The notes beneath the pieces are model-generated. The model was given only the letters and a program-made list of their open reading frames with translations. It had not been told where the DNA came from and searched no databases. Positions 34,543-43,388 of a stretch of DNA of 64,000 nt are shown here, piece by piece. Both the position numbers and the translations under genes were made by a program. How positions within the stretch are numbered: the stretch's first letter is position 1; each line of letters opens with the position of its first letter. Source of the stretch: an uncultured bacterium (GTDB lineage: Bacteria > Patescibacteriota > Saccharimonadia > Saccharimonadales > Saccharimonadaceae); NCBI GenBank assembly GCA_947084875.1, contig CAMTUF010000003.1, forward strand, positions 58,644 through 122,643, in the 5' to 3' direction.

Positions 34543-35259
34543 CTACATCAATCCAGACTCAAGATCGATCTGGAAATCGTATATACCACTTTCTACAAGT
34601 ATAGTTAAGATATCCTTATCAATTCCTGTAATGATCATGATGCCAATAATCACCAAGATAATTCCGAGAACTTTATGAAATACACCGTTTGGATTGATTC
34701 CCCACCCTAGCTTTTGTACCAACGCACGTCCAAATATAGCGAGTAGCGCGAGCATTAGCGACAGCCCCACTACAAACGCTATTAAGTACGCCATTCCAAT
34801 AAGTGGATCGACTGGCAAAATACTCGCGACGATCAATGCGTACGTCGGGCTACAGGCACTAAAAACAGGCCCAAGACTTGCACCCAATAATATGTCACCC
34901 CAAACTCCCTTCTTAGCGGCCGCTTTGCTTGTATTTTTCTGTGCAGTGACAGGAAGACGTGTTTTTGTGATGACCCATTCCCACAGCTTTGGAAACAGCG
35001 TCACAACACCAAACAACAAAATAATGATACCGCTGATAATAGCCCAAGTTGCAGACGGAATGCCAAGTAGTAGTGTCGTCGACTTCAGTAAAATACTAAA
35101 GATAATAATTGAAACACCAAGTCCGATAATGACGAATGTTGGGCTGTGCGTTTTCTTTCCATCTGATGTACGTGCGAGCAGTATTGGTATCATCGACACA
35201 ATACAAGGTGCAAGTATAGTTAATATGCCCGCCAAGAAGGCAACGATTAGCAGGCTCAC
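34543..35259 (-). CDS. ccdA: cytochrome c biogenesis CcdA/DsbD-family thiol-disulfide transporter
   Basis: 238 aa with 6 TM helices and the conserved Cys in TM1 (LAPCIVSMIP). A second conserved Cys lies in ...FSACSPTYA. Confidence 0.7.
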   Translation of the reverse strand: MSLLIVAFLAGILTILAPCIVSMIPILLARTSDGKKTHSPTFVIIGLGVSIIIFSILLKSTTLLLGIPSATWAIISGIIILLFGVVTLFPKLWEWVITKTRLPVTAQKNTSKAAAKKGVWGDILLGASLGPVFSACSPTYALIVASILPVDPLIGMAYLIAFVVGLSLMLALLAIFGRALVQKLGWGINPNGVFHKVLGIILVIIGIMIITGIDKDILTILVESGIYDFQIDLESGLM

Positions 35260-35750
35260 TTTGTATTCTCGAGAATCACATCAAGTGATTTTTCTTTACC
35301 GTATCCGTTCCACAATGTTTGCTTATCACCTGCTGCGTTCACTCGCACAAAACTTGATTGAATCGTCACACCATATTGTTTTCGAAGCGTTTGTTCGTCA
35401 TCATAACTGACTTTCAAGATTTGCACACCGTCAGGGATAGTAGCGGACTTGATTGCTTGGTCATAGCCGCGACACTCAGGACACCATCCCGCATAAAAGA
35501 ATAATAGTGTCGTCTGGTAGCCAGTGTCGCGAACAAGGCTAGACGAATAGTTTTCATATCGCCCGCTTGCAAGTATCACTGGCGTATCGGCACTTGATTG
35601 AGATACTGCAGGCATATCAACAGCCGTAGATGTCTGGGTATCTTGGGTTGTCTCCATTGTTGTCTTTGGCGTCATCGGACGCAGCACAACGACAAGCACG
35701 AGAGCAGCGATAAGAACAATGATCCCTATAACCCACAAAATATATTTCAT
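35256..35750 (-). CDS. membrane-anchored thioredoxin-like protein (TlpA/ResA-like)
   Basis: N-terminal TM helix and a thioredoxin-fold active site WCPEC. The coding sequence overlaps ccdA, suggesting translational coupling. Confidence 0.7.
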   Translation of the reverse strand: MKYILWVIGIIVLIAALVLVVVLRPMTPKTTMETTQDTQTSTAVDMPAVSQSSADTPVILASGRYENYSSSLVRDTGYQTTLLFFYAGWCPECRGYDQAIKSATIPDGVQILKVSYDDEQTLRKQYGVTIQSSFVRVNAAGDKQTLWNGYGKEKSLDVILENTK

Positions 35751-38632: not shown

Positions 38633-39580
38633 CTACTCCACTGCCTTCTCGTCCATAACGGGGAGTTGAACAATAACATTATAGACGGCGTTTTCCATAA
38701 TTTTAGTTCGGTTCAATTTATTGTTCGTAAAATAGGGAAAAGGGTCTTTGCTGGTAGCACCATATTCCTTTTGCACTAATACACCTACATCGGGATACTG
38801 CGAAGGGACTCTATCGGTCATCGATTTTGGAAACTCCACATCAAGGTCGATACCGACTTTCTTCTCTCCGCCCCAAGGCTCGATAACAACAACGGTACAG
38901 CCAAAGCCATTGTGGTCTTTGTGCGCTGTATGATAACCACTCTCGATAGTAGCTATATAACTAATGTCTTTGCGCTCTTTCAAGAATTCAGAAAGATTTT
39001 TTTGACGATTGAGCGCTCCTTCGTACGCCTCTTCGATACTGCGGGGTTGTTCGTTCACGCCCGATTCTACTTTTATACCATCGAGTCGTACCCGAAGTCC
39101 TGCACGGCGTAGTCCTCGACTCACTGCACGGTGCTTGAGTATGCTTTCTGAACTCACCATAACGAGCGGTAGCCCTGCAAAGTACTCTTGAATATTTTTG
39201 AGGTCGTTATTGATAACGATAGGATGCATTCCCTGGATTTCGTCACTGTATGACACCTCGGGAATGGGATTGAGTAAAAATATCTCGAGTCCCTGAGCAT
39301 AGGCATAGGCGATCTCAATCAAGGTATTACCACCTATGTAGTTGGCGACATCGTTCTTGTCGGCGTTTACCACCAAGATCGCATCAGAGTCGTCAATCTT
39401 ACGAAAATGCGTATCCATGAGACCACGTTTTAGAGTAGCGTTCTTAGTCTTGTCGTCTGTGTATGTTCGCTCATCGTCTACGTTCGGTATGGCTACCTCG
39501 TAGCCAGCTGATTCGAGCTTTTTCTGCCACTGCTCCATCAATGGTGCATGCACCATTGAGCCGCAGATCGTTATCTTCAT
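38633..39580 (-). CDS. fusion protein: nucleoside 2-deoxyribosyltransferase-like N-domain plus YjjX/DUF84 non-canonical NTP pyrophosphatase-like C-domain
   Basis: The N-terminal ~135 aa (ICGSM..., D.ILVVN, GGNTLIEIAYAYA) fit the deoxyribosyltransferase-like Rossmann family. The C-terminal ~175 aa carry VESGVNEQP (E. coli YjjX has VESGVPEQP) and a matching overall pattern. Confidence 0.55.
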   Translation of the reverse strand: MKITICGSMVHAPLMEQWQKKLESAGYEVAIPNVDDERTYTDDKTKNATLKRGLMDTHFRKIDDSDAILVVNADKNDVANYIGGNTLIEIAYAYAQGLEIFLLNPIPEVSYSDEIQGMHPIVINNDLKNIQEYFAGLPLVMVSSESILKHRAVSRGLRRAGLRVRLDGIKVESGVNEQPRSIEEAYEGALNRQKNLSEFLKERKDISYIATIESGYHTAHKDHNGFGCTVVVIEPWGGEKKVGIDLDVEFPKSMTDRVPSQYPDVGVLVQKEYGATSKDPFPYFTNNKLNRTKIMENAVYNVIVQLPVMDEKAVE

Positions 39581-39582
39581 TG

Positions 39583-40578
39583 TTACTCGCTCTTTGTGCC
39601 AGAACCAGCATTAACTTCGTAGCTAGTGTTGGTGCTCTCAAAGAAGTTCACGAGCTGTAAGGTATCGTTAGCAGCTGCCATCCATTTCGCAGGGTTTGAC
39701 ACCTTGTAGTGTGCTTCAAAACCAAGCTCTTCAAGGCGTCGATCAGCCAAGTACTTTACGTACTGGTTGATGTAGTCACTATTGAGTCCAAGAATACCGT
39801 TTGGCAGAAGATCACGGTTATAGGCTTCTTCCATTTCGACACCATCCAAAATCATTTGACGAATTTCAGACGCAAACTCTTCAGTCTGCAGATCTTCGTT
39901 TTCTTCAAGCACCGTCAGGATCAAGTTAATACCGAACTTCAGGTGCAGTGATTCATCACGAACAACCCAGTCGATAAGTGATCCAAAGTTACGTAGCAAG
40001 TTACGCTGACGGAAGCTCAGTGCCACCATGAAGCCACTATAGAACCAAATACCTTCAAGGATAACGTTGTAGGCAACCAGGTTACGAACAAAGTCCTTCT
40101 TGCCCTCCGTTGTAGTGATATCAAGAGTTTGTTCGGTCATGCGCTTGATGAATGTTGTCTCAAATTCTTCTTTACGAGCCATTGAGGGTGTTTCAACGTG
40201 CGCTGCATAGGCTTGGTCACGATCGATTGGGAATGTTTCGAGGACATATTCGAAACTCATACAGTGATTCGCTTCTTCCCACATTTGTTTTGCCAGGTAC
40301 AAGTGACACTCAGCAGCATTGACGTAAGGGTAAACGCCAAAGGCCAGTGCTTTGTTAACCAACAGTTCGTTTGGGTTGAAGTAACTCATCAAGAATGTCA
40401 CCGCGTGGCGCTCTTCTTCGGTCATCTTCTTCCAGTCGGACAAATCTTGACCTAGTTGAATTTCATTTGGAAACCACGTGTTTGCGACAGCTTGGTTATA
40501 AAGGTCCATTGCCCATTGGTAATGAACGGGTTTGAGCAGTAGCCCGTCCTGAATTCCGGTTCCTAGTATTCCTGACAT
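39583..40578 (-). CDS. nrdB: ribonucleotide-diphosphate reductase beta subunit (class Ia R2)
   Basis: Di-iron/tyrosyl motifs (EE.NH..SFEY, EGIWFYSGF, RDE.LH). AAGGAG SD. Confidence 0.92.
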   Translation of the reverse strand: MSGILGTGIQDGLLLKPVHYQWAMDLYNQAVANTWFPNEIQLGQDLSDWKKMTEEERHAVTFLMSYFNPNELLVNKALAFGVYPYVNAAECHLYLAKQMWEEANHCMSFEYVLETFPIDRDQAYAAHVETPSMARKEEFETTFIKRMTEQTLDITTTEGKKDFVRNLVAYNVILEGIWFYSGFMVALSFRQRNLLRNFGSLIDWVVRDESLHLKFGINLILTVLEENEDLQTEEFASEIRQMILDGVEMEEAYNRDLLPNGILGLNSDYINQYVKYLADRRLEELGFEAHYKVSNPAKWMAAANDTLQLVNFFESTNTSYEVNAGSGTKSE

Positions 40579-40596: not shown

Positions 40597-40770
40597 TTAT
40601 TGACAACCTTCACACATAGTGAGGTCTGCTGGGTCGAGTGGTGCTGCAAATGTGCCATTTGCTGCTGCTTCGTCGTTTGCTTGCGCCTGAGCGTTTGCCA
40701 TTGCTGCGTCAATTGCTGCTAGTTTCTCTTCCAGTGTCATGTTGTCGTTGATGATTGTTGATGCGTTCAT
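40597..40770 (-). CDS. unannotated 57-aa ORF between nrdA and nrdB ending in CEGCQ
   Basis: Hand-translated as MNASTIINDNMTLEEKLAAIDAAMANAQAQANDEAAANGTFAAPLDPADLTMCEGCQ. An AGGGGA SD-like sequence lies upstream and the stop is 18 nt before the nrdB ATG. Below the 60-aa cutoff of the supplied track. Confidence 0.4.
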   Translation of the reverse strand: MNASTIINDNMTLEEKLAAIDAAMANAQAQANDEAAANGTFAAPLDPADLTMCEGCQ

Positions 40771-40841
40771 TGTGTTATCCCCTATTTACTGATGTCTTGT
40801 TTTATTCGTTTGTTTCGGTTGGTGGTAGTTGATTTATCCTG

Positions 40842-43247
40842 TCATACTCCTACCTCTTGTTTCGCTTTGGCGAAGCCAAATCCAGCTTTTCGTGTCGCGC
40901 CACTGCTTTCAGCCTTGTTGACTTTGACAGTACTTTGTTCAGCACTGTGTCGTGGCTTCACGTGGAGGTAGTATGTCGTTTTCAGACCGCGCTTCCATGC
41001 GCTGCTATAGATAGCAACCATGTCGTCAATGTCGCGAGTTTCAAGATACATATTACGGCTGATCGCTTGATCAACCCATTTCTGCGCGCGAGCCGCTACT
41101 TCGATAAATGAGTATGGACTTAACTGGAAGCTTGTCTTGTATACATCTTTTACTCGCTGTGGAATAGCATCAATTTTTTGCACATCACCTTGCAAACGCA
41201 GTACGTCTTCTTTAACGTCATCCCAAATACCGAGGTTTTTGAGGTCGTTCACGAGGTTCACATTCACTTCAAGGAATTTACCGTTCAGTGTTGCACGGCT
41301 AAAGATCTGTGCGAATTGAGGGTCAAGACCTGGAGTTGTTCCTGCAATGTGTGCAATGTTTGCTGTTGGCGCAATGGCCATCAGTGTTGCGTTGCGCATA
41401 CCTTTTTTAACTTTGGCACGAAGTGTGTCCCAGTCTAAACGAGTCTTGCGGTTTACTTCAACTTTGACCTTGCGGTCTTTTGCCAAAATATCAATGGTGT
41501 CGATTGGCAAGATGCCTTTGCTCCAACCACTTCCCTTGAATGTTGGGTAAGCACCGTATTTCTTTGCAAGATCTGCTGATTCATCAATCGCATTGTAACT
41601 GACGAACTCAACCAGCTGGTCAATCAGGTCGTAAGCTTCTTCGCTATCGTAGCTGTGGCCAAGTTTTTCAATAACATCAGTAAAGCCCATAACACCAAGT
41701 CCTAGTGCGCGGTTCTGTGTGTTGCTGTTCATTGCCTCTGGTACTGGTGTGTTCGTGATATCAACCAAGTTATCAAGCTGACGAATCGCGCTTCGCGTTG
41801 CGTCTGCAAGACGATCCCAGTTCCATGTCTTGTCTGGACCAAGGAACGCTGACAAGTTGATACTAACGAGGTTACAAACTGCCGTGTTGTCCTTGTCTTG
41901 GGGCAATGTAATCTCAGTACAGAGGTTGGACAGGTGAATTGTGCTGGTGTTGTTGTTAAGCGCACGAACGTTAATCGTGTCTTTCCATGTCAGCCATGGG
42001 TGACTTGTTGCCTGTAGAGTGATCAAGATCTGGCGGAATTGCTCACGAGCAGTTGTCTTGATGAACTCACGCATTTCGCCACGTTCCGCCTTCGCAACGT
42101 ATTCAGCGTATCGTGCGCTAAATTCTGCACCGTATAGTTCTGACAAGTCTTTTACTTCAGCTGGATCGAACAAGTACCAATCCTGGTCGTTGTCGACGCG
42201 CTTCATAAACTCATCACTGATGAAGACTGCAGTGTTTGCAAGTCGTGTACGCAGGTAAGGATCACCTGAGTTCTGTTTCAAGTCCAAGAACTGAGGAAAG
42301 TTCACGTGCCAGTTCTCCATATATAATGCGGCAGCACCTGCTTTTTTACCCTTACGACTGACGGCGAATAGTGCTGTATCAATCATTTTCATGAAAGGAA
42401 TAGGGCCAGTTGACTCTGTGTTGGTTGTCTTTACAGGACTTCCAGCTGAACGAAGTTTGTTCAAGCTAATACCAATACCACCTGTTCCTTTAGCGATCCA
42501 CATCACATCACGAACACCTTTAGCGATCGAGTCCATGTCGTCCTGTACATCGATGAGGAAACAGTTAGAAAGTTGTGGGAATGATCCACCAGCGTTCACA
42601 CGAGTTGATCCACCAGGAACATAGTCAAGTGCACTCATGTGATCGTAGAAATCGAGAGCACAGGCAGTGGGGTCTTCAGCGTTAAAGCTGAGTCCCATTG
42701 CAATACGCATGTGGGTGAACTGTGGTACTTCGATTGGCTCACCGCTTTGCTTGCGGAGTGCGTAGCGATTTTTGTTGGTCACAACGCCCAGGTATTTGCT
42801 CAAATTGTCTCGTGATGGATCAAGAGCCTTTGCAAGCTTCTTGATGTCGAATACCTTAGCATTCATTCGTTCGTCGAGTAGGCCATCAGTGACGCCTTGT
42901 TTCAGGTATTCAGCAAACTTTTGTTCATGTAATTTCTTTAGTTCTGCATCGTTTTCGTAATCACCAAGGATGTTCTTGTAGATATTCTTGAGCAGCAACC
43001 TCGCTGCGATGATGTCAAAGTCTGGATCATCTTTGACGTTCTGCAGTGCTGTGTGGATCACTGCTTCATCAAGCTGCTCACTGGTAATACCGTCGAACAG
43101 GGTCAATTGCAACTCAGTCGCTACTTGAACGACTTTGCTAATTTGATCTGGCAAACCTTCGCTTGCCTTAACGAGTGCCAAGTTAATTTTGTTGGCGTCA
43201 AACTCTTCGCGTGTGCCATCGCGCTTGACGACTGAAATGGTGCTCAT
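40842..43247 (-). CDS. nrdA: ribonucleotide-diphosphate reductase alpha subunit (class Ia R1, with ATP-cone)
   Basis: 801 aa with an N-terminal ATP-cone (VVKRDGTREEFD.NKI) and catalytic-core motifs (NLCTEI, ...). The C-terminal 45 aa contain no cysteine. Confidence 0.95.
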   Translation of the reverse strand: MSTISVVKRDGTREEFDANKINLALVKASEGLPDQISKVVQVATELQLTLFDGITSEQLDEAVIHTALQNVKDDPDFDIIAARLLLKNIYKNILGDYENDAELKKLHEQKFAEYLKQGVTDGLLDERMNAKVFDIKKLAKALDPSRDNLSKYLGVVTNKNRYALRKQSGEPIEVPQFTHMRIAMGLSFNAEDPTACALDFYDHMSALDYVPGGSTRVNAGGSFPQLSNCFLIDVQDDMDSIAKGVRDVMWIAKGTGGIGISLNKLRSAGSPVKTTNTESTGPIPFMKMIDTALFAVSRKGKKAGAAALYMENWHVNFPQFLDLKQNSGDPYLRTRLANTAVFISDEFMKRVDNDQDWYLFDPAEVKDLSELYGAEFSARYAEYVAKAERGEMREFIKTTAREQFRQILITLQATSHPWLTWKDTINVRALNNNTSTIHLSNLCTEITLPQDKDNTAVCNLVSINLSAFLGPDKTWNWDRLADATRSAIRQLDNLVDITNTPVPEAMNSNTQNRALGLGVMGFTDVIEKLGHSYDSEEAYDLIDQLVEFVSYNAIDESADLAKKYGAYPTFKGSGWSKGILPIDTIDILAKDRKVKVEVNRKTRLDWDTLRAKVKKGMRNATLMAIAPTANIAHIAGTTPGLDPQFAQIFSRATLNGKFLEVNVNLVNDLKNLGIWDDVKEDVLRLQGDVQKIDAIPQRVKDVYKTSFQLSPYSFIEVAARAQKWVDQAISRNMYLETRDIDDMVAIYSSAWKRGLKTTYYLHVKPRHSAEQSTVKVNKAESSGATRKAGFGFAKAKQEVGV

Positions 43248-43374: not shown

Positions 43375-43388
43375 ACTACATATGTAGT
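43375..43388. promoter_or_regulatory. perfect 14-bp palindrome ACTACATATGTAGT in the nrdA upstream region (operator candidate)
   Basis: Lies 128-141 nt upstream of the nrdA ATG. Related imperfect copies occur at about 43522-43534 (GCTACATGTGGT) and about 43546-43556 (CACTACATACA). Confidence 0.35.

Follow-up and report, generated by a model that had tools for sequence, protein, structure and literature searches.

A separate micro-protein gene carries the redox-tail motif of a class I ribonucleotide reductase in Saccharimonadales and Microbacteriaceae

A micro-ORF lies between nrdB and an nrdA that lacks tail cysteines

We analysed a stretch of 64,000 nt (the window) from an uncultured bacterium of the Saccharimonadaceae, in which a ribonucleotide reductase (RNR) locus consists of nrdA, a micro-ORF and nrdB. 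The coordinates and sequences given in a preliminary description of this locus hold, with the correction that every gene lies on the minus strand, as do all features described below. The nrdA gene (40842-43247) encodes a class I RNR catalytic subunit of 801 aa with the Pfam ATP-cone, all-alpha and barrel domains, and the protein scores 1342 bits against NCBIfam NF005101. Its top PDB match was 5IM3 (E 3.9e-183), and the active-site motifs are aligned with that structure; LSNCF, SNLCTEI, VCNL and the TTYY dyad are retained, and with them the active-site Cys, Asn and Glu residues and the YY dyad. NrdA was the sole PF02867 match in this 95%-complete genome. As judged from the sequence, the enzyme must work, because no other RNR catalytic subunit was found in the genome and its active-site residues are retained.

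In E. coli, the Cys pair of the class I tail is C754/C759, and tails of the NrdAz type end in ...CSIDNPDCEACQ. The absence of a C-terminal Cys pair from NrdA, claimed in the preliminary description, was borne out: from the YY dyad to the C-terminus the sequence reads TYYLHVKPRHSAEQSTVKVNKAESSGATRKAGFGFAKAKQEVGV and contains zero Cys residues. The C-terminal tail (TYYLHVKPRHSAEQSTVKVNKAE...RKAGFGFAKAKQEVGV; 40845-40976) holds the conserved motifs AEQSTVKVNK and GFGF. Both are also present in the NrdAs of relatives with a fused Cys tail, where they are followed by an extension to the Cys-bearing end.

The micro-ORF (40597-40770, 57 aa plus stop) encodes MNASTIINDNMTLEEKLAAIDAAMANAQAQANDEAAANGTFAAPLDPADLTMCEGCQ. 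The micro-ORF starts with an ATG 71 nt past the nrdA TGA, in a frame other than that of nrdA, and its TAA is followed after 18 nt by the nrdB ATG (40578). The 71-nt spacer to nrdA (40771-40841) contains a Shine-Dalgarno-like AGGGGA (40778-40783) 7 nt upstream of the micro-ORF ATG, so that the 57-aa ORF with its own ribosome-binding site was found as first described. In the frame of the micro-ORF, the spacer also has a TAA stop 5 codons before the ATG (the stop-to-stop frame begins IGDNTM...), and a single frameshift therefore cannot join the micro-ORF to NrdA. At the extreme C-terminus of the product is the redox-tail motif P-x-D-P-x5-C-x-x-C-Q (DPADLTMCEGCQ; 40600-40635), identified by its invariant residues and by hhalign.

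The fold of the micro-protein was predicted with AF2, which gave a single alpha-helix at residues 13-38 (LEEKLAAIDAAMANAQ...; 40657-40734; pLDDT 74-79) and a flexible tail (pLDDT ~48 for the last residues), with the only two Cys residues forming the CxxC at the extreme C-terminus. The micro-protein had zero Pfam or NCBIfam matches, even at E up to 10. A thioredoxin-fold redoxin was considered for the micro-protein and rejected on the missing Pfam and NCBIfam matches and the AF2 model of one helix and a tail. The earlier wording "dedicated mini-redoxin" is thus unsupported, as the predicted structure lacks a thioredoxin fold.

The nrdB gene (39583-40578; Pfam PF00268) encodes a radical-generating subunit of 331 aa. 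Its first metal ligand is Glu (NPNELLV), and the radical Tyr is replaced by Phe (EEANHCMSF); these two residues correspond to E89 and F127 in the alignment to 1SYY/4D8F. By this sequence criterion (Phe for Tyr, Glu for Asp), it is a class Ic RNR subunit of the Chlamydia trachomatis type, and the class Ic motifs are identical in all orthologous operons. The only redoxin candidate found in the genome was a YruB/NrdH-like, glutaredoxin-like CAFC protein. The micro-ORF of the window shares its frame with nrdB, with a single TAA in between; readthrough from one into the other was rejected because this layout is not conserved in relatives. A palindrome upstream of nrdA was likewise rejected as an NrdR operator, since the genome yielded no NrdR gene and the palindrome count of the window was not above chance.

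The micro-ORF accompanies Cys-less NrdA in two bacterial groups and occurs alone in phages

The distribution of the micro-ORF was analysed in Saccharimonadales, where it accompanies this NrdA in all 36 genomes that carry it. In the window's own genome and 40 relatives, the peptide was present in exactly the 6 genomes with this NrdA, and two other NrdA types in the order, which served as a control, carry a fused terminal Cys pair. The micro-ORF lies between nrdA and nrdB in 30 of the 36 genomes, after nrdB in 1, and after nrdB and another gene in 5. The spacer to nrdA varies between 10 and 114 nt, and the frame relative to that of nrdA can be any of the three (11/10/9). AGGGG/GGAGG-type sites were found a few nt 5' of the start in every Saccharimonadales micro-ORF. 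This variety of spacers and frames, dozens of independent assemblies and the 6 genomes with a copy after nrdB rule out a frameshift or sequencing error, which the preliminary description had named as a way to refute its reading. It had also called the ORF unannotated; this is not universally so, as public metagenome-assembled genomes call homologues "hypothetical protein".

Tail cysteines were absent from NrdA in 36/36 Saccharimonadales orthologues and 80/80 Microbacteriaceae orthologues. The about 80 Microbacteriaceae that share Cys-less NrdA include Leifsonia, Clavibacter and Aurantimicrobium, and the split arrangement recurs in 78/79 of their loci. Here the peptide has 21-47 aa, ends in ...VPVDPMDDLQCESCQ and holds little beyond the tail motif; its start is usually on the nrdA stop codon. 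Thus, Cys-less NrdA without a peptide neighbour, a further case that had been proposed to count against the split tail, was found in 0/36 Saccharimonadales and in a single Microbacteriaceae locus out of 79, L117, which has no recognisable peptide gene within 3 kb. Neither the Saccharimonadales nor the Microbacteriaceae peptide was matched by any Pfam or NCBIfam model, and with 21-47 codons the Microbacteriaceae genes are shorter than most gene-calling cut-offs allow.

To these come phage copies, found by a viral scan with a single protein query: 5 complete phage genomes (38-88 kb) contain the peptide gene and have no PF02867 match. The peptide probably acts in trans, because its position in the operon varies and phages carry its gene without an RNR catalytic subunit.

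The micro-ORF is under purifying selection (dN/dS 0.125 in frame, vs 1.43 and 1.77 in the two shifted frames). By segment, dN/dS was 0.10 for residues 1-24 and lowest, 0.05, for residues 43-57. D46, P47, C53 and C56 are invariant across 18 diverse copies, and K16, L17 and I20 of the helix are invariant or nearly so; this N-terminal helix is conserved in Saccharimonadales and missing from the Microbacteriaceae peptides. Homologues of the micro-protein fall into 1650 protein clusters, and a search with the basal micro-ORF of the L058 type matched only 2 proteins. Conservation and a coding signature, which had been proposed as a check on the micro-ORF, are thus both present. Given 36/36 Saccharimonadales, 78/79 Microbacteriaceae loci and a dN/dS of 0.125 against 1.4-1.8, the recurring arrangement is far beyond chance.

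Two explanations without a functional separate gene can be weighed against these data. The micro-ORF might be a functionless relic in decay, left when a nonsense mutation or an assembly error truncated the tail, as its short length, Ala/Gln-rich composition and lack of a curated family match would allow. This has virtually no probability left: the low dN/dS and invariant Cys pair, the conservation across two phyla and phages, the retained translation signals and the relocation within operons all speak against it, and the conservation data already refute it. Alternatively, stop readthrough or programmed frameshifting at the end of nrdA might restore a fused NrdA, the separate ORF being only apparent. 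Such recoding would suit three loci (L043, L047 and L059), where nrdA and the micro-ORF share a frame and are separated by one stop and 12-18 nt, and also 67/78 Microbacteriaceae loci, where the peptide gene overlaps the nrdA stop in the -1 frame; because of this geometry, some frameshift-made fused product is possible in these 67 loci. However, overlaps of the ATGA/TAATG kind are the ordinary signature of translational coupling, and each copy is equipped with a start codon and a Shine-Dalgarno site of its own. Moreover, the spacer of the window is 71 nt long with the in-frame TAA before the ATG, Saccharimonadales spacers and frames vary as given above, the gene follows nrdB in 6 genomes, and phages have stand-alone copies. 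We therefore regard recoding as a very improbable general explanation.

The micro-protein ends in a motif homologous to fused NrdA tails

Nearly all of the best 150 NrdA representatives end in ...C.(I/L)D(D/N)P.CE(A/S)CQ. The nearest fused relatives, Parcubacteria-type NrdAs with 58% identity, end in ...CPIDPAERAQCDSCQ or ...CPTDPADLAQCDSCQ, to be compared with ...PLDPADLTMCEGCQ for the window's peptide and ...CPIDPAERALCESCQ for the L058 micro-ORF. The motif common to micro-ORFs and fused NrdA ends is PxDPxxxxxCxxCQ. In hhalign, a profile of the micro-ORF (A1) matched one of the fused tails (A2) with a probability of 96.2% and an E of 2.4e-9, the match covering the terminal 20 columns and being anchored at both C-termini. 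A relaxed alignment extended over 56 columns (probability 94.7%) and placed MTLEEKL against M(P)LEEEKV of some fused tails. Descent of the N-terminal helix from the fused tail is suggestive only, because the per-column confidence of the relaxed alignment is near zero outside the last 20 residues. An AF2 model of the fused relative P0384 (857 aa, 104-row alignment) had a disordered tail (769-857, pLDDT <50) with no confident docking signal.

In the NrdA tree, the split forms, from Saccharimonadales and Microbacteriaceae together, form one clade (97/80), which is sister to a fused clade of the candidate phyla radiation (100/91) and nested among fused forms. This topology implies that the Cys-less NrdAs of this clade arose by a single fission event. 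Elsewhere, tails without Cys are rare: as a control, 75/75 other NrdA loci had a fused terminal Cys pair, and in a published survey 1737 of 2022 class I sequences had a CXXC (PMC9531940). A second, independent split was considered for the Cys-less sequences P0162 and P0198 but gained no support from a metagenome scan, which gave only relatives of 47-58% identity, namely these 75 loci with fused Cys pairs; for P0162 itself such a split is still possible.

Proposed role of the peptide as a dithiol shuttle in trans

Taken together, these results make it likely that the 57-aa gene encodes what was once the C-terminal end of the tail of an ancestral NrdA and is now a polypeptide of its own, for which we propose the role of a dithiol shuttle in trans. 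The earlier suggestion of a split-off tail acting in trans as a CxxC mini-protein is thereby supported, in that its C-terminus is homologous to fused tails and the split NrdAs form one clade. It is from homology and co-occurrence that we infer electron shuttling by the peptide; the identity of the reductant and the stoichiometry are inferred as well. The ancestor would have been an NrdA of the Parcubacteria/Paceibacteria type with a long disordered tail ending in ...P-x-D-P-x5-C-x-x-C-Q. An interruption of the coding sequence in one gene lineage would have left the catalytic subunit without its tail cysteines, and the distal piece would have acquired its own ribosome-binding site and start codon. 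After each turnover, the C53/C56 dithiol of the free peptide would enter the active site as the tethered tail of other class I enzymes does, and reduce the active-site disulfide of NrdA. The oxidised peptide would then depart and be re-reduced by a cytoplasmic redoxin, for which the YruB/NrdH-like CAFC protein, presumably linked to NADPH through a thioredoxin-reductase-like flavoenzyme, is the candidate. The N-terminal helix of the Saccharimonadales peptide may aid self-association or docking, either to NrdA or to the redoxin. It counts against the proposal that the normal tail owes its high local concentration to tethering, which a free peptide of 21-57 residues lacks.

The peptide could also have descended from the tail and now have another role: delivery of metal for the Mn/Fe cofactor of the class Ic NrdB, redox sensing or regulation, or recruitment of a redoxin as an adaptor, with a small redoxin of the YruB/NrdH-like kind reducing NrdA directly. 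Every operon pairs the peptide with an NrdB of class Ic signature (Glu ligand, Phe radical site), CxxC motifs can bind metal, the small Grx-like CAFC protein of the genome might reach the active site, and an extra helix is conserved in the Saccharimonadales peptide, all of which would be compatible with such a role. However, the strongest constraint is on the tail-end motif, which fused NrdAs share and use as the redox shuttle; fused relatives in the same NrdA clade bear this motif on NrdA and not on NrdB, and the Microbacteriaceae peptides hold little more than the motif. Furthermore, its carriage by phages without an RNR gene is easier to reconcile with a consumable reductant of the host enzyme than with a factor for cofactor assembly. 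We therefore consider another role unlikely.

The proposed shuttle can be extended in a more speculative direction, which we put forward tentatively and regard as possible rather than probable. The peptide would be a diffusible, ribosomally made dithiol cosubstrate, comparable to an encoded DTT with a docking motif, and not a stably bound third subunit. It would cycle between the redoxin and the active site of NrdA, be made in excess or in coupled stoichiometry, and limit dNTP synthesis by its supply; the split operon would be common to Saccharimonadales and Microbacteriaceae as a result of gene exchange between actinobacterial hosts and their episymbionts. A limit of that kind on dNTP synthesis would account for the presence of this gene alone, as an auxiliary metabolic gene, in phages of these hosts.

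Relation to known split and accessory RNR components

To our knowledge, reviews and textbooks present the Cys tail as integral to the large subunit of every thiol-dependent class I RNR. The locus departs from this standard account, in that the sole RNR found in the genome is a class I enzyme whose tail is on a separate micro-protein. The end of this micro-protein (PxDP...CxxCQ) is directly homologous to the tethered tail of class I NrdA, its Cys pair likewise falls within the final five or six positions of a flexible segment, and its presumed role as a shuttle from redoxin to active-site disulfide would be the same. Unlike the tethered tail, it is separate from the alpha polypeptide, has its own start and ribosome-binding site, and is sometimes encoded after nrdB or by a phage alone. 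A detached redox tail of class I was not found described in the literature.

The closest precedent is NrdJa/NrdJb of Pseudomonas aeruginosa, a split class II RNR in which NrdJb was concluded to mediate thiol-disulfide exchange (Crona et al. 2015, PMC4520616). NrdJab has been termed a unique split RNR in a free-living organism (PMC4520616), and split domains have been treated as distinct to class II (PMC9669993). In both systems, the catalytic chain lacks C-terminal Cys residues, an adjacent, separately translated chain bears them, and the origin was by fission of a single-chain ancestor. NrdJa/NrdJb is, however, an AdoCbl-dependent class II enzyme without NrdB, whereas the present one is class I with an NrdB of class Ic type, and unlike NrdJb the detached piece is a peptide of 21-77 aa with two Cys residues and no folded domain. 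In the Aeromonas phage Aeh1, a homing-endonuclease insertion reportedly splits the catalytic core of nrdA, and the association domains are derived from the mobile element (Crona et al. 2011, PMC3045599). Both are class I nrdA genes encoded as two polypeptides that must associate; unlike Aeh1, only the terminal redox tail is detached here, with no mobile element. NrdH and glutaredoxin reductants of RNR are also small, CxxC-containing accessory proteins encoded with the operon, and in Facklamia ignava a Grx is fused to NrdB (PMC6187632). In contrast to these thioredoxin-fold proteins, which reduce the tail, the micro-protein is without such a fold and corresponds to the tail itself.

The split tail is not an oddity of a single genome, as it extends across Saccharimonadales and to about 80 Microbacteriaceae, many of them cultivable. 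The phage genomes with only the tail gene point to an unrecognised phage route for boosting host dNTP synthesis. Finally, a synthetic peptide of 21-57 residues could open the poorly resolved encounters of the tail with the active site and with the redoxin to structural trapping.

A small gene between nrdA and nrdB is under purifying selection

The nrdA gene (40842-43247, minus strand) encodes an 801-aa protein with the ATP-cone, all-alpha and barrel domains of Pfam. After the conserved tyrosine dyad NrdA ends in TYYLHVKPRHSAEQSTVKVNKAESSGATRKAGFGFAKAKQEVGV, a stretch without any cysteine, as the preliminary description had noted. The same description had reported an unannotated 57-aa ORF past nrdA and proposed that it serves NrdA as a trans-acting CxxC mini-protein. 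This micro-ORF (40770-40597, minus strand) was found as described: its 57 codons encode MNASTIINDNMTLEEKLAAIDAAMANAQAQANDEAAANGTFAAPLDPADLTMCEGCQ in another frame than nrdA, it starts 71 nt past nrdA with an SD-like AGGGGA 7 nt 5' of its ATG, and 18 nt separate its stop from the ATG of nrdB (40578, minus strand). A frameshift that had merely cut a fused tail off NrdA does not account for the arrangement. Since a TAA stands in the micro-ORF frame five codons upstream of the ATG, one frameshift is unable to fuse the two genes, and in relatives the micro-ORF takes the three possible frames relative to nrdA about equally often (11/10/9), behind spacers of 10 to 114 nt. At three loci (L043, L047, L059) the micro-ORF is in frame with nrdA, with only one stop codon and 12-18 nt between them.

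A protein search with the micro-ORF returned 1650 homologous clusters. The best 120 of these share 84-95% identity over lengths of 57-75 aa, mostly 57 or 59, and are called 'hypothetical protein' in Saccharibacteria assemblies where any name exists; neither Pfam nor NCBIfam holds a model for the peptide. Among 20 gap-free orthologues the median dN/dS was 0.125 in frame versus 1.43 and 1.77 for the two other frames, with values of 0.05 for the last 15 residues, 0.10 for residues 1-24 and 0.32 for the linker. M1, L17, D46, P47, C53 and C56 are invariant in 18 diverse aligned copies, and in Saccharimonadales an AGGGG/GGAGG-type site precedes the start of every copy by a few nucleotides. AlphaFold2 predicted a single helix spanning residues 13-38 (pLDDT 74-79) and, after it, a flexible end; this helix is specific to the Saccharimonadales peptides. 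Judged by its substitution pattern, the micro-ORF is evidently a real gene under purifying selection that is strongest at the Cys motif, which bears out its proposed coding nature.

The Cys-less NrdA retains its active-site motifs

The best structural match of NrdB was the class Ic R2 of Chlamydia trachomatis (1SYY/4D8F, E 2e-68), with Glu opposite E89, the first metal ligand, and Phe opposite F127, the radical-tyrosine position. NrdA best matched Pseudomonas aeruginosa NrdA (5IM3, E 3.9e-183), and alignment to it showed that the LSNCF, SNLCTEI and VCNL motifs and the YY dyad are retained, so that every turnover should still yield an active-site disulfide needing reduction. As NrdA was the sole RNR catalytic subunit found in this 792-kb, 95%-complete genome, in which no NrdD was found, the enzyme must work.

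The peptide gene accompanies Cys-less NrdA in two bacterial groups

NrdA of the window type occurred in 16/61 sampled genomes of the genus, the others having a distant RNR of ~870 aa or none detected. When both proteins were used as queries against the own genome and 40 relatives, the peptide was found in exactly the six genomes with window-type NrdA. Across the genus and order, 36 genomes carried an intact close NrdA orthologue; its tail was Cys-less in 36/36, and all 36 had the micro-ORF in the operon. Its position varied: in 30 it lies in the nrdA-nrdB interval, in one (G124) nrdB comes right before it, and in five (L065-L069; genomes G320, G454, G399, G277 and G406) a ~140-aa gene stands between nrdB and the micro-ORF. 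By eye, the ~140-aa product looks like a pyridoxamine-phosphate-oxidase-like flavoprotein; NrdB of these five loci reads EEANHFMTFE in place of EEANHCMSFE. In two same-order genomes whose NrdA is of another type, the tail is fused in the usual way and ends in CVSCGS or CLMCSS.

Where the tail gene follows nrdB, the nrdA-nrdB spacer of L049, L051 and L052 holds other small ORFs of 39-76 codons, with no cysteine motif and no mutual similarity. In G251, a Saccharimonadales genome rated 50% complete, the window-type nrdA (L060, L063, L064) is interrupted by many stop codons, and the micro-ORF is fragmented too, with ...NVDPMDELGCEGCQ left; the two genes appear to decay together.

The sister group of the Saccharimonadales split NrdAs is a Microbacteriaceae clade (Leifsonia, Clavibacter, Rathayibacter, Humibacter, Microcella, Aurantimicrobium, Salinibacterium, Cryobacterium and others), some members being complete genomes from cultures (contigs L070-L149, e.g. 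L087, Leifsonia poae NZ_CP192580, and L145, Aurantimicrobium minutum). Here the NrdA tail was Cys-less in 80/80, and 78 of the 79 readable loci had an ORF of 21-47 codons 3' of nrdA, probably missed by most gene callers, with the consensus ...DEYYVPVDPMDDLQCESCQ, an end written ...VPVDPMDDLQCESCQ and invariant Y, V, P, D, P, M, C, C and Q. The class Ic signature was present in every NrdB of both groups. At 59/78 loci the start of the peptide gene and the nrdA stop codon share bases as ATGA or TAATG, the usual signature of translational coupling. The peptide is predominantly in the -1 frame relative to nrdA, which leaves room for a minor fused NrdA product through frameshifting.

Cys-less NrdA without a peptide neighbour, which would have spoken against the proposed pairing, was seen in 0/36 Saccharimonadales and 1/79 Microbacteriaceae loci. 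The sole exception is L117 from a Homoserinimonas sp. MAG: there nrdB comes immediately after the gene for the Cys-less NrdA, and the 3 kb downstream contain no recognisable peptide gene. As a control, a fused terminal Cys pair was present in 75/75 other NrdA loci from metagenomes, and CXXC has been reported in 1737/2022 class I sequences (PMC9531940).

The peptide descends from the fused NrdA tail

We searched NrdA against 1.8 billion representative proteins. Among the 150 best relatives the ending ...C.(I/L)D(D/N)P.CE(A/S)CQ is almost universal. The nearest fused relatives (58% identity, 857-1001 aa; the named ones from Zambryskibacteria, Parcubacteria, Paceibacterota or Minisyncoccota) have the AEQSTV.VNK and GFG motifs in common with the window NrdA tail, and then continue with 100-200 low-complexity residues up to ...CPIDPAERAQCDSCQ or ...CPTDPADLAQCDSCQ. 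The peptides end in ...PLDPADLTMCEGCQ in the window and ...CPIDPAERALCESCQ in the basal Saccharimonadales copy L058. Profile-profile comparison aligned the micro-ORFs end to end with the terminal 60 residues of fused tails (probability 96.2%, E 2.4e-9). Maximum-likelihood analysis of the NrdA core placed every Cys-less NrdA in one clade (97/80), sister to a fused candidate-phyla-radiation clade (100/91), and both clades lay nested among fused NrdAs; one fission is thus the simplest reading. Taken together, the alignments and tree identify the micro-ORF as the missing NrdA tail by descent, with an apparent single origin.

Saccharibacteria are episymbionts on Actinomycetota, which makes gene transfer plausible. 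The tree gives such a transfer no direction, because the two sets of split NrdAs are reciprocally monophyletic.

An R/K-x-GFGF(A/G) motif (40860-40900, NrdA residues about 783-796) is conserved in all orthologues. It lies in the disordered NrdA tail of split and fused forms, is often duplicated in Microbacteriaceae, and could be a docking site. Two NrdAz-type representatives, P0162 and P0198, also have Cys-less ends (...ALNSVKAK and ...ALNKVSA); no close relatives of either were retrieved. Truncation in gene calling or an independent fission of the tail could each explain such ends.

Solo phage copies and a proposed trans-acting shuttle

Peptide homologues were found on 20 IMG/VR contigs (L234-L253, e.g. 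L243:4001-4171 and L235:4001-4159) at 46-74% identity with DP.....C..CQ kept. No nrdA or nrdB lay on the same strand within flanks of up to 4 kb per side on these 20 contigs. The copies sit inside replication and lysis gene neighbourhoods, with nearby genes for an endolysin and a primase as well as for a DNA polymerase exonuclease subunit and a DnaD-like loader. Five of the phage genomes were estimated complete (38-88 kb, three with terminal repeats), and the RNR barrel domain was absent from all five. A solo copy is sensible only if the peptide acts in trans on the host enzyme, and it may be an auxiliary metabolic gene feeding the host's Cys-less NrdA.

Several features of the peptide gene are evident at the level of the genomes: translation signals of its own, strict genomic linkage, mobility inside the operon and solo copies in phages. 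In the mechanism we propose, the reduced peptide would enter the NrdA active site and reduce the disulfide, and the oxidised peptide would then leave and be re-reduced by a redoxin. In an AlphaFold2 model of a natural fused relative the tail was disordered, which fits a flexible shuttle; the model says nothing on docking. As cytoplasmic redoxin the genome offers a single candidate, a YruB/NrdH-like protein of 91-103 aa that has a CAFC motif, and several pyridine-nucleotide disulfide oxidoreductases are encoded. The only PF00085 match is a membrane-anchored thioredoxin-like protein (WCPEC, 164 aa), encoded with an adjoining 238-aa CcdA/DsbD-like membrane protein at 34543-35750 (minus strand); no classical cytoplasmic thioredoxin was thus detected in the genome.

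The closest known system is the split class II RNR NrdJa/NrdJb, in which the separate NrdJb chain does the thiol-disulfide exchange; NrdJab was called a unique split RNR in a free-living organism (PMC4520616), and split domains were regarded as distinct to class II in a subsequent analysis of the whole family (PMC9669993). In phage Aeh1, a mobile element splits the catalytic core of nrdA (PMC3045599). In a full-text literature search no account of a detached tail in class I RNR turned up; it is thus a variant not described in the searched literature, split RNR itself being already known from class II.

Surroundings of the operon

About 130 nt upstream of nrdA is a perfect palindrome, CTACATATGTAG (43376-43387); its motif count in the window was not above chance. 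The genome yielded no NrdR gene, its sole TIGR00244 match being the NrdA ATP-cone. Directly 3' of nrdB, with a stop-to-start gap of 2 nt, lies a gene (38633-39580, minus strand) with a solid NTPase_I-T/DUF84 match in its C-terminal half and sub-threshold matches only (E about 0.006-0.008) to nucleoside 2-deoxyribosyltransferase families in its N-terminal half. It probably belongs to the same nucleotide-metabolism operon as nrdA and nrdB.
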